From Patescibacteria group bacterium (lineage in GTDB: Bacteria; Patescibacteriota; Patescibacteriia; DYGC01): a stretch of DNA of 55,715 nt. Below are positions 51,089 to 55,028 of this stretch, piece after piece. The first letter of the stretch is position 1; every line of letters starts with the position of its first letter. Both the position numbers and the translations under genes were made by a program. The notes under the pieces are model-generated. The model was not told where the DNA came from, did no database searches, and was given only the letters and a program-made list of their open reading frames with translations. The DNA lies in the NCBI GenBank assembly GCA_036769805.1, contig DAIPKK010000001.1, positions 1 through 55,715 on the forward strand, in the 5' to 3' direction.

Positions 51089-52108
51089 TTATTTGTTTAA
51101 ATGGGCGTTAAATTCATCTTTGCGTTTCCATAATTTTTCCACCCATTCGGTATTGTTTTTATACCATTCCACAGTTTCGGTTAAACCTTGTTCAAATTTG
51201 TCCGCAGTGTATTTTGGTGTCCATCCTAGATTTGTGATTTTGGTAGCATCAATGGCGTAGCGGCGGTCATGGCCGGGACGATCGGCAACATATTCAATCA
51301 TTGATTCATCTTTACCCAAAACTTTCAGCATCATTTTAGTTAATTCCAAATTGTTGCGTTCGTTGTCAGCACCGATATTGTAAACTTCTCCCGGGGCGCC
51401 TTTTTGCAATAATAAATCCAAGGCACTGGCGTGGTCGCGGACGTGAATCCAATCACGCACATTCAAACCATCACCGTACATCGGCACCTTTTCATTTTTT
51501 AATAATTTAAAAGTAAAAAAGGGAATCAGTTTTTCCGGAAATTGAAATGGCCCGTAATTGTTGGAGCAGTGAGTTACCACTACCGGCACTTTATGAGTGA
51601 CAAAATAAGCATGACACATCAAATCACCACCGGCTTTGGCAGCCGCATAAGGCATGTTCGGCATAATCGGGGTTTCTTCGGTGAATTTTTCATCCATATT
51701 TTCCAATTCCAAGGCTCCATAAACTTCATCGGTGGAGACATTAACCATTTTTTGAATTTTATTGGTGCGAGCCGCGTCCAGCAACATTTGCGTGCCCAAA
51801 GTGTTGGTCAAAACAAAATCTTTGCAACCGCCGTGAATGGAACGATCAACGTGGGTTTCAGCGGCAAAGTTGATGATATGGTCCAATTGATGTTCTTGGA
51901 TGGTTTTGTTTAATAATTCCAAATCAGTAATATCACCTTGCACAAAATGATAACGCGGGTCATTGGCAATGTCTGCCAAATTATCCAAATTTCCGGCATA
52001 GGTCAGTTTATCAAAATTCACCAAATAAATGTCAGGATGATTTTCCAACATGTGATGAATAAAATTTGAGCCGATAAAACCGGCGCCTCCGGTTACAAGT
52101 AAGCGCAT
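51089..52108 (-). CDS. rfbB: dTDP-glucose 4,6-dehydratase
   Basis: Rossmann motif VTGGAGFIGSNF, catalytic YAAAK, and overall RmlB length. Confidence 0.9.
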   Translation of the reverse strand: MRLLVTGGAGFIGSNFIHHMLENHPDIYLVNFDKLTYAGNLDNLADIANDPRYHFVQGDITDLELLNKTIQEHQLDHIINFAAETHVDRSIHGGCKDFVLTNTLGTQMLLDAARTNKIQKMVNVSTDEVYGALELENMDEKFTEETPIMPNMPYAAAKAGGDLMCHAYFVTHKVPVVVTHCSNNYGPFQFPEKLIPFFTFKLLKNEKVPMYGDGLNVRDWIHVRDHASALDLLLQKGAPGEVYNIGADNERNNLELTKMMLKVLGKDESMIEYVADRPGHDRRYAIDATKITNLGWTPKYTADKFEQGLTETVEWYKNNTEWVEKLWKRKDEFNAHLNK

Positions 52109-52243
52109 ATTTTTTTATTGTTAAAAATTATTTTTTGCTTAACATAAGGGTATAAAAAAAAGCGATAACTGTCAATTTGTAGATTTTTTTGACACCCCGC
52201 CTTATTTTTGCGATGATATTAGTCTGTGGAAAAGGAGGGGACC

Positions 52244-52498
52244 ATGGATATTCAAGAATTGACCGATAAGCAGATGCTTTGGTTGAGAAATAATGCTGAA
52301 GAAGGGAAGGGTTTTTTTGTTGTTAAAGAGATGTTTTTAAAAGGTAGTCATTTCTGCAAGTTGGCTGATGACACTTCACAGCTGTTTACTTGCCAGTTTC
52401 ATTGCCGGAGCAAATTAAAATGTGCCGCTGAAAAGCGACATCTGAAGTTTGCCAATGGGCAATGCGGTCTTTATGAGGGGCCGCGTGATAAGAAGTGA
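52244..52498 (+). CDS. small Cys-rich hypothetical protein (84 aa)
   Basis: ATG preceded by the canonical SD AAGGAGGGG. Five cysteines (FCK, TCQFHC, KC, QCG). Followed by a strong terminator. Confidence 0.5.
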   Translation: MDIQELTDKQMLWLRNNAEEGKGFFVVKEMFLKGSHFCKLADDTSQLFTCQFHCRSKLKCAAEKRHLKFANGQCGLYEGPRDKK

Positions 52499-52508
52499 TT
52501 TTTTCAGT

Positions 52509-52534
52509 GAGGATGTGAACATCCTCTTTTTTTT
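52509..52534 (+). terminator. intrinsic terminator
   Basis: GAGGATG-TGAA-CATCCTC stem followed by a T8 run. Confidence 0.75.
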
Positions 52535-52536
52535 AT

Positions 52537-52563
52537 AAAAAAAAAGCCACGTTGCGACGTGGC
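52537..52563 (-). terminator. terminator-like hairpin oriented for the minus strand
   Basis: A9 run then GCCACGT-TGCG-ACGTGGC. Read on the minus strand, the hairpin is followed by T9. Confidence 0.45.
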
Positions 52564-52615
52564 GGATGTAGCGTGGTTCGTCCATGGTTTTCCCCCCTGT
52601 TTTGTGTTGTTATTG

Positions 52616-52645
52616 TTGACAGGGAGAGGCTTGATTGTGTAAATT
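52616..52645 (+). promoter_or_regulatory. sigma70-type promoter for the IMPase-fold gene
   Basis: TTGACA, 18-nt spacer, TAAATT. Confidence 0.5.
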
Positions 52646-52679
52646 ATGGGTTGCGTTTTTCACACGCAAGGAGGGTGAC

Positions 52680-53588
52680 ATGTTACTAACCGATTGTCTG
52701 AAAGGTGTTGAAAAGGTTTTGAAAGTATTGGGCGATACCGGTCGTGAAATTCTTCGGCAGGGTGACAATTTCGGTGATCTGAAAAATGACACCGAATTGC
52801 GCGCCGACCACGAAGTCGGCCGAGTCCTGCTGGAGTATTTCCAGTCGCGCCGGGAAGTCGGTCGCATCACCATTGAAGGTGGGGCTGACATGATTTGCTT
52901 GGAAGGCAAGTGGCTGATCTACGAGGCTGGAATGGAAGAACAAATTCCGGACGACGCCAAGTGGGTCTGCATTGACCCGATTGACGGTTCGCTCAACTAC
53001 CGGAACAGCCTGCCGGAGTTTGGGGTTTATTTGCCTCACGCCGTCTGCATAACGGTGCTGAGCACGACCAAGCGCCCGACGTTCAATCAGGTGCGTCAGT
53101 CCATGGTTTACAATCTGGGCGGTCGCGTCAGCGTCCTGGCCAATACTGACGAGTATCTGGACCTGAGCCGCCAGCAGTTGTTGGTGAATGGCACATCTTG
53201 GGATCCCAAGTTGCGCCGTGCCAAGGCGGATTTTAACCTTGGTAAAATGATTATGCTCATGGATTTCTATTATCCCGAGAATCGCGATTTGGCCCACGAC
53301 ATTTTCAAGAACGAGAAAGGCTATTTCCGTTCTTATGGATCGGCATCGTGGGAGATGGCGTTGGTGGCGATGGGGGATGCTGATCTCTATGTCAGTCTCA
53401 GTCAGAAACAGCATGAGCTGGGTGCCGGCTATCGGATGATCAAGGCGGTCGGCGGTGCTTGCTGCGACTTCAGCGGCAATGACATCGGTCTTCGCCCGTA
53501 CGATTTCCAGACGCCGGTGCCGGTGGTCATGTCGGCCTATCCCAATTTGGTGGAAGAGTTCCTTTCACTGGTGAGGCGCTGTCGCTAA
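52680..53588 (+). CDS. inositol monophosphatase/FBPase-superfamily protein (divergent)
   Basis: ATG preceded by SD AAGGAGGG. Signature WVCIDPIDGSLNY (DPIDGT-N type) and GSASWEMALVAMGDADLYV. GC-richer with CTG-biased codons. Confidence 0.65.
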   Translation: MLLTDCLKGVEKVLKVLGDTGREILRQGDNFGDLKNDTELRADHEVGRVLLEYFQSRREVGRITIEGGADMICLEGKWLIYEAGMEEQIPDDAKWVCIDPIDGSLNYRNSLPEFGVYLPHAVCITVLSTTKRPTFNQVRQSMVYNLGGRVSVLANTDEYLDLSRQQLLVNGTSWDPKLRRAKADFNLGKMIMLMDFYYPENRDLAHDIFKNEKGYFRSYGSASWEMALVAMGDADLYVSLSQKQHELGAGYRMIKAVGGACCDFSGNDIGLRPYDFQTPVPVVMSAYPNLVEEFLSLVRRCR

Positions 53589-53613
53589 GCAGCGTTACGC
53601 AGAAAAATTCATT

Positions 53614-53642
53614 CCCCGAACACACGTTCGGGGGTTTTTTTT
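53614..53642 (+). terminator. intrinsic terminator
   Basis: CCCCGAAC-ACAC-GTTCGGGG stem followed by a T8 run. Confidence 0.8.
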
Positions 53643-53719
53643 GCCATTGTTTACGCAGATTAAGATGATAGCGATAATGCGGGAAATTGTTTTGACCCAG
53701 GATTCCCCGGCTGTATGGA

Positions 53720-53780
53720 GTCATCCCAGAAAAAATTTTTATTTAAAAAATTTTTGTCTGGGATCCCGTGGGCGAAGCTA
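53720..53780 (+). repeat. GTCAT-hairpin repeat with conserved tail (type B, copy 2)
   Basis: GGAGTCATCCCAGA-[AT palindromic loop]-TCTGGGATCCCGTGGGCGAAGCTA. Confidence 0.7.
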
Positions 53781-53783
53781 CGT

Positions 53784-54812
53784 TTATTTTCCCGCTAAAT
53801 ATGGAGTCATCAATTTAACAGTATTCTCCAAATTCTTCCTCACCGCCCCGTGTCCGACAAAATCACGTCCGCTTAAATTTAATTGATATTCACTTTGTGT
53901 AATAATTAAATTGATCAGTTTTTCTGCAATTTTTTGAGCGACAGCCGTTTTATCCGGTGATTGTTTATCCTTTAACCATGTCACCACGGCGCTGATTTCC
54001 GTCGGTTGAATACTCAAACAAAAATTGGGAACATTTTGAATGGCCCCCAAACGCAATTGTTTTGTTTCAGGATGGAGTTGTAATCCATATTTTACTTGAT
54101 TACCACCACGTTGCGCGATTTTCACCGAAGTGTTCAGTTTTTCCAGGGCGCGTTTTTGGTCCGGACGGTCACTGTATAAATCATCAAAAGAACAGATTGC
54201 TTGTCCGGTAGTTTTATGAAATAAAACCTGATCGGTTTTATGAAAATAATCATCATAGTCAGAGGAGCGAGCGACAATAAATTCATCACCTAAAAAATGA
54301 TTGAGCAATATCGTGATGGCCATTTCCGCCTGCGCGCCCGGTCGCTCATTTTGACTTTGTTTCCATTTTGCAAGCGTGTCCTCCAAAGTCGTTGTGCGAT
54401 ATTCTTCTTTTTTGAAAGCTAAAATTTTTTCATCTTGCAAACCACTAAATTCCAGTTCTTGTTCGTGAATTTTCTTTTTGTCTTGTTCAATTGCTGCGGC
54501 ATCATAAACAATCTCTTGGTAATTATCCATTTGAATTTTCCCTTCCGTATTGAGGAGATTATTCAGCTCGGGATTTTTTAGATTTTTCATTTCGGCGTTG
54601 CGTGTTTCCGCTAATTGTTTGAGCGTGCTTGTTAAAATTTTTTGTTGAAATTTTTTATCGGGTTTTTCTTTCTGCCCACCGGCGGCATTGCTTTCCATCA
54701 ATTGTAAAATTTTCACCCGAAGCATCTCCGGAGTTGTTGTTCGTTCTGTGTCCACTGAATAGGGTGGGCGGGTGCTTACCTTTTCAAATTGTCGAGCGGG
54801 ATTAAAAACCAT
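53784..54812 (-). CDS. hypothetical protein (342 aa)
   Basis: Long ORF with native AT-rich codon usage. No motif, TM helix or signal peptide recognised. Confidence 0.5.
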   Translation of the reverse strand: MVFNPARQFEKVSTRPPYSVDTERTTTPEMLRVKILQLMESNAAGGQKEKPDKKFQQKILTSTLKQLAETRNAEMKNLKNPELNNLLNTEGKIQMDNYQEIVYDAAAIEQDKKKIHEQELEFSGLQDEKILAFKKEEYRTTTLEDTLAKWKQSQNERPGAQAEMAITILLNHFLGDEFIVARSSDYDDYFHKTDQVLFHKTTGQAICSFDDLYSDRPDQKRALEKLNTSVKIAQRGGNQVKYGLQLHPETKQLRLGAIQNVPNFCLSIQPTEISAVVTWLKDKQSPDKTAVAQKIAEKLINLIITQSEYQLNLSGRDFVGHGAVRKNLENTVKLMTPYLAGK

Positions 54813-54928: not shown

Positions 54929-55001
54929 GGGCCTGTAGCTCATCTGGTAGAGCGCAGCATTCGCATTGCTGAGGTAAGGGGTTCGAGTCCCCTCAGGTCC
55001 A
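54929..55001 (+). tRNA. tRNA-Ala (anticodon CGC)
   Basis: Acceptor stem GGGCCTG/CAGGTCC with the G3:U70 identity pair, anticodon loop TTCGCAT, T-arm GGTTCGAGTCC. Confidence 0.9.
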
Positions 55002-55028
55002 CAAACTAAACCAAATTATCAGTTTTAT

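Follow-up and report, generated by a model that had tools for sequence, protein, structure and literature searches.

Replacement-type flexible genomic islands are variable slots between core genes, often by tRNA and surface-polysaccharide genes, and phage 'morons' are autonomous units of promoter, gene and terminator. Here we compare with these systems a short interval in a 55,715-nt stretch of DNA from a Patescibacteria group bacterium (GenBank assembly GCA_036769805.1, contig DAIPKK010000001.1, positions 1 to 55,715; hereafter the window, contig C51 in our numbering). The assembly comprises 0.82 Mb in 79 contigs with 40.8% GC, and the genome is 89% complete. The interval lies between rfbB and a tRNA-Ala gene followed by gyrB, and in the window it holds a gene for a small Cys/His-rich protein (the small gene) and a gene for an enzyme with the inositol monophosphatase (IMPase) fold (the enzyme gene), both led by a Shine-Dalgarno (SD) sequence. 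A preliminary description of the window had read this pair as a compositionally foreign phosphatase module of recent horizontal origin. We consider it probable instead that the genes are long-resident, independent cassettes in a long-standing variable slot, that their SD sequences and raised GC content at third codon positions (GC3) are the signature of a gene class, and that the enzyme is a likely active phosphatase.

Like replacement-type islands, the slot has conserved flanks around divergent or unrelated contents, and both dTDP-sugar genes and a tRNA gene are adjacent to it. It differs from them in being tiny (1.5–3 kb, 2–4 genes), in having no mobility genes and in that each slot gene forms its own predicted transcription unit with an SD sequence in an otherwise SD-less genome. 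The cassettes resemble morons in each carrying a promoter-like site, an SD sequence and an intrinsic terminator between unrelated genes, but there is no phage context at the slot. A phage origin was rejected: the enzyme has no relative on 2.9 million IMG/VR viral contigs, and the slot proteins gave no meaningful PHROG match, with only a marginal one (E = 0.0045) for protein p306 of the related locus L089.

For translation initiation, the described counterpart is found in Bacteroidia, where SD-independent initiation goes together with an SD-led rpsU (Jha et al. 2021, PMC7797042; McNutt et al. 2023, PMC9976891; Naeem et al. 2026, PMC13000453). In the present genome, likewise, most genes are SD-less with A-rich leaders, and rpsU has a strong SD whereas rplK and rplA have none; a same-class relative retains the anti-SD. 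The differences are that this is another phylum, that ~34 further, mostly stand-alone accessory orphan genes are SD-led with raised GC3, and that the rpsU SD is shorter. As for the enzyme, it has the full-length fold of the IMPase/FBPase/SuhB superfamily (compared here with TM1415 of T. maritima, 2p3n; SuhB of E. coli, 2qfl; and AF2372 of A. fulgidus, 1lbv), and three of its elements align with SuhB, namely the D-x-x-D/E loop at the N terminus, DPIDG(S/T) and the Glu that precedes the first strand; it departs from these proteins in having H-E for W-D, in sharing only 13–19% identity with any solved structure and in scoring below the equivalog cut-offs. Among the papers searched, none described SD usage classes in Patescibacteria or a pairing of IMPase with Nudix proteins such as the one reported below.

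Cassette turnover and residence at the slot

The rfbB to tRNA-Ala/gyrB interval is a small replacement-type hotspot, in which the small gene is the most constant occupant and the enzyme is optional. We compared the window with related loci, numbered L, and found that close relatives (rfbB product 94–98% identical in amino acids) hold different cassettes in this interval, some of them without the phosphatase, so the islet that had been proposed is real and is variable. One such locus (L091; rfbB 94% and gyrB 95% identical) has the small gene, hyp342, tRNA-Ala and gyrB, without the enzyme. Two others (L089 and L090; rfbB 97–98%) have a small-gene allele 45% identical to that of the window, followed by three unrelated genes, two of which are SD-led with GC3 of ~0.6, and lack both the enzyme and hyp342. 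In L001 the enzyme is present with the small gene reduced to a 3' remnant. Because each gene thus occurs without an intact copy of the other, the idea of a two-gene module does not hold. In relatives, gyrB is 93–95% identical, and a metagenome scan for additional slot variants returned nothing beyond the loci already compared.

Where the enzyme occurs among close relatives, it occupies the same place. Its closest homologues, with 92%, 79% and 79% amino-acid identity, come from relatives' metagenomic contigs; in L002 the enzyme is 92% and rfbB 98.5% identical, and in L001 the values are 79% and 89%. The gene order rplA-rplK-nusG-secE-fdtA-rfbB to the left of the slot is common to the window, L002 and L001, with a hyp342 homologue to the right, and the elements at the enzyme junction are identical in L001, L002 and L003, the enzyme itself being absent from L089, L090 and L091. 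Promoter, hairpin of the 5' untranslated region (UTR), SD and terminator align base for base, while the remaining spacer DNA has diverged. The enzyme gene differs from that of the window by 0.37 (L002), 1.1 (L003) and 2.8 (L001) substitutions per synonymous site (dS). Since these values are comparable to those of rfbB (0.67–1.2), the enzyme has been co-inherited with its flank over these divergences, and its ratio of nonsynonymous to synonymous substitution (dN/dS) of 0.05–0.12 indicates purifying selection. Enzyme GC3 is 0.63–0.66 in the window, L002 and L003 and 0.48 in the AT-richer L001, where neighbouring genes have 0.31–0.40. An excess that persists beyond one substitution per synonymous site is a maintained feature and not a transient scar; at distant orthologous loci, the GC content of the family gene equals or exceeds that of the locus in 10 of 10 cases. 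The preliminary description had itself named conserved synteny in sister genomes as evidence that would speak against a recent import. Such synteny is what we found, and with the same place, the same regulatory elements, dS from 0.37 to above 1 and selective constraint, 'recent' can no longer be upheld.

The space between the two genes records an earlier occupant. The gene hyp104, which encodes 104 amino acids and is SD-led on the minus strand, is intact in L001 (7544–7858) and L003 (1164–1478) and completely lost from L002; all that the window retains of it is its start and its own terminator, which explains why terminators stand back to back there. On the other side of the enzyme gene, the type B repeat that had been placed directly after the islet is indeed present but sits in an insertion of ~140 nt that is private to the window's lineage: L001, L002 and L003 lack it at this junction, and it did not belong to the ancestral locus. 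Positions 53714 and 53800 carry a perfect 12-nt direct repeat, TATGGAGTCATC, which may be a target-site-like duplication. The right-hand occupant, hyp342, is 41–83% identical in L001, L002, L003 and L091, in contrast to 89–98% for rfbB among relatives; it gives way to other genes in L089 and L090 and gave no match to Pfam, PHROG or PADLOC.

Searches for mobility and other signals at the slot were negative. No integrase or transposase ORF (open reading frame) lies in 51.9–55.1 kb, no direct repeats flank the two genes, the tRNA-Ala gene is at the far border only, and there is no plasmid signal at the slot. In an Rfam scan of leaders and spacers, tRNA-Ala alone passed. A defence island was rejected, with no credible PADLOC match for the slot proteins, and absence of the enzyme from the same-genus reference G001 (80% complete) was set aside as uninformative, as rfbB, hyp342 and nusG are missing there too. 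Table 1 collects the features of the locus, together with rpsU from another contig of the assembly.

Table 1. Features of the slot and its borders (window coordinates) and of rpsU (contig C52)
Feature	Position	Strand	Details
rfbB (dTDP-glucose 4,6-dehydratase)	51089–52108	-	Left border; 89–98% amino-acid identity in L001, L002, L089, L091
Small-gene promoter-like site	52189–52217	+	TTGACA, 17 nt, TG-GATGAT; 10/12 matches
Small-gene SD	52232–52240	+	AAGGAGGGG; 5 nt ahead of ATG 52244
Small gene	52244–52498	+	ORF, 84 aa; Cys/His-rich product
Small-gene intrinsic terminator	52509–52534	+	7-bp stem (hairpin 52509–52526) and T8; kept in L001, L002, L003
hyp104 relic	52546–52585	-	First 8 codons, MDEPRYIR (52585–52562), fused to own terminator (52563–52546)
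Enzyme promoter-like site	52616–52645	+	TTGACA, 18 nt, TAAATT
Enzyme 5'-UTR hairpin and SD	52651–52675	+	TTGCGT / ACGCAA; abuts AAGGAGGG, 5 nt before ATG 52680
IMPase-like enzyme gene	52680–53588	+	ORF, 302 aa
Antisense shadow ORF of enzyme gene	52686–53414		242 aa
Enzyme-gene intrinsic terminator	53613–53642	+	9-bp stem (hairpin 53613–53634) and T8; kept in L001, L002, L003
Lineage-specific insertion	53642–53782		~140 nt; 'type B' hairpin repeat GGAGTCAT
hyp342	53784–54812	-	342-aa orphan; SD-less, fast-evolving right-hand slot occupant
tRNA-Ala(CGC), then gyrB	54929–55002	+	Right border; at border in all six related loci
rpsU (bS21)	C52:7589–7825	-	SD AAAGGAGG (8 nt), 6 nt before ATG

An SD-led minority class with raised GC3

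Each of the two genes has its own set of predicted expression signals, in agreement with the preliminary description. AGGAGG stands at 52233–52238 and 52669–52674, 5 nt from the ATG of its gene in both cases, and AAGGAGGG precedes both genes five bases upstream of the ATG; the SD is identical ahead of all five small-gene orthologues. The promoter-like sites at 52189 and 52616 rank as the top two sigma-70-like sites in the region. That of the small gene is kept upstream in L002, L003, L089 and L091, and that of the enzyme gene has identical -35 and -10 elements in L001, L002 and L003. The hairpin in the enzyme 5' UTR is retained in L001 and L002 and occurs with an altered stem in L003, and each gene ends in a GC-rich terminator hairpin with T8 that is conserved in relatives. 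The predicted monocistronic transcripts would begin ~7 nt beyond 52217 and 52645 and stop at 52534 and 53642. A near-identical leader, GCGTTTT(T)CAC(A)CGCAA(A)GGAGGGTG, occurs at 52651–52675 of the window and near position 13571 of contig C66 (minus strand). The genes behind it are unrelated and both SD-led, with the 3' arm of the hairpin running into the SD; this common leader may be a shared portable 5'-UTR module.

The composition of the islet is only partly as it had been described. We ran genome-wide statistics on crude, non-overlapping longest-ORF calls (786 ORFs covering 87% of the genome sequence). The enzyme gene does deviate: its GC is 0.536 (ORF mean 0.416; z = 2.4; rank 15 of 786) and its GC3 is 0.657 (ORF mean 0.443; z = 2.5; rank 11 of 786). 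In a sliding-window comparison, a check that had been suggested beforehand, it lies within the top 0.4% of 909-bp windows. The small gene, in contrast, is compositionally ordinary (GC 0.412, GC3 0.424; z = 0.02). Among the codons said to be foreign in the enzyme gene, CTG (0.38 versus 0.08) and CGC (0.52 versus 0.27) are strongly over-used, as is GTC (0.43 versus 0.16), but GGC is barely raised (0.35 versus 0.28), and the deviation in synonymous codon-usage likelihood is modest (z = -1.5). The long antisense shadow ORF reported on the enzyme gene is present.

Genome-wide, SD-like motifs are absent from 730 of the 786 ORFs (~93%), whose -20 to -1 region is 79.5% A+T, which confirms that nearly all starts have A/T leaders without an SD. 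Within the window, SD-led ORFs number two of 56 in this gene set, namely the two flagged genes. The hexamer AGGAGG has 156 occurrences in the genome, 37% of which precede the start codon of an ORF of at least 50 codons, compared to 13–22% for control hexamers. We found 34 ORFs that are confidently AGGAGG-led, with GC3 of 0.575 versus 0.437 for the rest (Mann-Whitney p = 1.4e-10), and the top GC3 decile contains 22 of them. They are mostly stand-alone genes, as judged by a median upstream gap of 151 nt versus 41 nt (p = 9e-5), and they are enriched in TTGACA-type promoter motifs (15% versus 3% of other ORFs) and in perfect-stem terminators following the gene (38% versus 7%; p = 3e-7). A Pfam scan of 22 SD-led products identified CofD, ROK, HD, a hexapeptide transferase, a CDP-alcohol phosphatidyltransferase, a treble-clef zinc finger and a weak Nudix match, with most of the products giving no match. 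Extreme GC3 values among SD-led genes (genome mean 0.44) were 0.95 for C79:3698–4042, which encodes a 114-aa orphan, 0.81 for C47:1342–2208, which encodes a Nudix-like protein, and 0.80 for C50:9924–10886, which encodes a polytopic membrane protein.

The SD-led genes include rpsU. Its 78-aa product has a weak bS21 match in the Protein Data Bank (PDB) and NCBIfam, and relatives 44–51% identical to it are annotated as ribosomal protein S21; these annotated relatives point to the Patescibacteria/CPR (candidate phyla radiation) as the group of this genome. The rpsU SD is kept in three divergent relatives (L095:3001–3222, L097:3001–3243 (L097/98) and L099:3001–3237), in which the leaders of the neighbouring genes (hisS, yqeY, signal peptidase and pilin) are A/T-rich and SD-less. 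In the same-class genome G019, the 16S rRNA has a canonical 3' tail, GGAUCACCUCCUUUC (...GGATCACCTCCTTTC), so that the anti-SD is retained there. The combination of SD and raised GC3 is the maintained signature of a genome-wide minority gene class (~34 of 786 ORFs, rpsU included) and not the scar of a fresh transfer, as had been supposed. Genes of this class would use SD-dependent initiation, and the others would start from A/T-rich SD-less leaders.

The enzyme subfamily and the small protein

The enzyme matches the Pfam family Inositol_P (PF00459) over residues 35–296 with E = 8.9e-16 and 58.6 bits, against a gathering cut-off of 27. Its AF2 model (pLDDT 90.9, pTM 0.91) has the five-layer alpha/beta sandwich of the superfamily, and each of the top 50 Foldseek hits in the PDB is an IMPase, SuhB or FBPase. 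The lowest E among them is 1e-16, and TM scores against solved structures are 0.64–0.80 (0.69/0.80 for 2p3n). In an alignment of 35 family sequences, complemented by a profile alignment to SuhB, the ligands of metal site 1 (E66 and D99-P-I-D102-G-S104) are invariant and align with EE/DPLDGT of SuhB. The motif W-D-x-A-A-G, which contributes the Asp220-equivalent ligand, is replaced by H245-E246-L-G-A-G in all 35 sequences, and two blocks, YYPENR and QKQHELGAG (QKQ-H245-E246-LGAG), are specific to the subfamily. Scores for the NCBIfam equivalogs (SuhB/IMPase, archaeal FBPase/IMPase, HisN, CysQ and NADP phosphatase) reached 35.8, 35.5, 26.9, 26.4 and 17.0 bits at best, compared with cut-offs of 264, 332, 275, 493 and 229, and we assign the protein to none of these named enzymes. 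The subfamily is rare (5.8 billion proteins yielded 35 clusters at 90% identity) and patchy: it was found in two of 59 same-class genomes, and its species representatives are labelled Uhrbacteria, Peribacteria and Gracilibacteria, plus a Gammaproteobacteria label that is unverified. The preliminary view of a divergent IMPase-fold enzyme that keeps DPIDG(S) is thus well founded. A separate IMPase-family paralogue of 270 aa is encoded on contig C17 of the same genome.

Gene neighbourhoods offer a clue to the substrate. A Nudix gene of one family adjoins the enzyme gene in seven of nine independent lineages (L003:3–653, L006:2334–3128, L009:840–1568, L010:5084–5797, L011:4951–5688 and L012:5096–5767, and also L005), and the best PDB matches of the profile of this family are ADP-ribose/ADP-sugar pyrophosphatases; in several of its members the Nudix box is degenerate and Pfam gives no match. 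In four lineages, dTDP-sugar genes are near the enzyme gene (rfbB-like, RmlC-like, NTP-transferase and NDP-hexose 2,3-dehydratase). From the conserved metal site and the predicted fold, the enzyme is most likely an active Mg2+-dependent phosphomonoesterase. Since the usual neighbours of the subfamily are a Nudix gene resembling ADP-ribose/ADP-sugar pyrophosphatases and, close by, nucleotide-sugar genes, we infer from gene neighbourhood only that the enzyme would dephosphorylate the sugar phosphate released when a Nudix step hydrolyses an NDP-sugar or ADP-ribose. On C47, an SD-led Nudix-like gene was considered as the family's Nudix partner and rejected, as it is not a homologue.

The small protein has an invariant H36, C38, C50, C54, C60 and C74, in an H-x-C...C-x3-C-x5-C...C pattern, and its gene is under purifying selection (dN/dS 0.12–0.30). 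Only four small relatives were found among 1.84 billion representatives, all at the slot and always directly after rfbB; a profile match to a 3261-aa protein (P0048) was rejected as compositional, as this FN3-type repeat protein matched only the Cys-rich core, eight times. A profile search of the PDB gave no match, and an AF2 model from five sequences was unusable (pLDDT 47). Judging from these residues and this distribution, the small protein is probably a metal-binding, lineage-restricted orphan. The alleles at L089:1376–1630 and window 52244–52498 are 45% identical next to rfbB genes that are 97% identical, with promoter and SD conserved, a pattern that suggests either that one allele replaced another or that the small protein evolves very fast.

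Alternative readings and significance

We propose that, in closely related Patescibacteria, the slot between rfbB and tRNA-Ala/gyrB takes up self-contained monocistronic cassettes of promoter, SD, ORF and terminator, which would be gained, lost and swapped among relatives through recombination in the conserved flanks. The version in the window would then consist of the small-gene cassette, the stump of the deleted hyp104 cassette and the enzyme cassette. Several points weigh against parts of this account. The ORF calls are crude, and the figures of 34 SD-led genes and 93% SD-less genes are approximate; the small gene and hyp104 are SD-led yet not GC-rich, so that the link between SD and GC3 is statistical rather than absolute; and the genome's own 16S was not found in the assembly, the anti-SD being seen only via a same-class genome. 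For the enzyme, Glu may take the place of Asp as ligand of the second metal, but this family-wide change could also modify activity or eliminate it. By tblastn, the window's genome (89% complete) has no Nudix partner, and the pathway may be incomplete or rewired in this organism. Finally, the family is patchily distributed, the stem branch is long (1.74) and no sister group is resolved, which leaves room for an old transfer between lineages.

Two readings would treat SD and GC3 as marks of import. In the one given in the preliminary description, a two-gene phosphatase module would have arrived recently from a GC-richer, SD-using donor, with its SD and GC content not yet ameliorated. Such an event would fit the rank of the enzyme gene in the top 2% of ORFs for GC and GC3, a canonical SD on both genes in an SD-poor genome, the absence of the enzyme from L089, L090, L091 and 57 of 59 same-class genomes, and the SD that also leads distant orthologues in GC-rich genomes (L010, L011 and L012). 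It is nonetheless highly improbable given that three relatives share the insertion context and regulatory DNA at dS from 0.37 to above 1, that GC3 has not decayed over saturated synonymous divergence, that the small gene is compositionally native and separable from the enzyme, and that searches for an integrase, a transposase, direct repeats at the flanks and a phage or plasmid signal were all negative. No donor is visible either: the nearest enzyme homologues outside the clade are only 37–40% identical, and a phylogeny-based donor search placed the window clade on its long stem with no supported sister group. The other reading moves the transfer back to the ancestor of the species cluster, with another CPR lineage as donor, and takes SD and GC3 as a passive, slowly decaying scar, with no translation class. 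The stem branch agrees with it, as do the scattered occurrence of the family over several CPR classes (Uhrbacteria, Peribacteria and Gracilibacteria) and the GC3 of 0.48 in AT-richer L001, which partial amelioration predicts. We regard it as unlikely, however, since the genes of the window and L003 are both near GC3 0.65 at dS of ~1.1, since SD, spacing and UTR hairpin are kept while the non-coding surroundings diverge, and since the gene is at least as GC-rich as its locus at all ten distant loci. Also against it, the signature of SD, GC3 and stand-alone position recurs on ~34 unrelated genes including the core gene rpsU.

A third possibility accepts the gene class and gives it a regulatory role. 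By analogy with Flavobacteriia, SD-poor Patescibacteria may reserve SD/anti-SD pairing for a translational channel comprising rpsU and portable, stand-alone, GC3-rich cassettes, the enzyme and the small protein among them, possibly gated by bS21; the 16S 3' tail would be sequestered in a bS21-dependent manner, SD-led mRNAs would be translated mainly by bS21-free ribosomes, and the SD would act as a regulatory address beyond a strong start signal. We give this only a small chance. In its favour, rpsU is SD-led here and in divergent relatives with SD-less neighbours, a hallmark also described in Flavobacteriales (PMC9976891, PMC13000453), ~93% of genes lack an SD and a same-class genome has the canonical anti-SD. 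Against it, the 8-nt rpsU SD is far shorter than the 'extended' SD required by the F. johnsoniae mechanism, and control in F. johnsoniae is limited to rpsU compared with ~34 SD-led genes here. More simply, an SD may serve to offset 5' ends that are richer in GC and more structured.

If long-resident cassettes with a maintained class signature are the right account, SD together with raised GC in an SD-less genome is easily misread as foreign, which should temper composition-based transfer calls in Patescibacteria. The locus also offers a compact, delimited case of cassette turnover between core genes in ultra-small genomes, which are usually thought to be only shrinking. The enzyme defines an uncharacterised IMPase-fold subfamily in which the metal motif is altered and a Nudix partner resembling ADP-ribose pyrophosphatases is conserved, and the two proteins are candidates for a two-step route of NDP-sugar or ADP-ribose turnover in salvage-dependent organisms. 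The most interesting residue is the class-level pattern with rpsU, which parallels the SD-blind ribosomes of Bacteroidia and, speculatively, may reflect a separately gated translation channel for accessory cassettes; the SD-led rpsU shared with Flavobacteriia makes specialised-ribosome control testable in a second phylum. If such gating is real, the SD-led cassettes would be switched as a group by ribosome composition.

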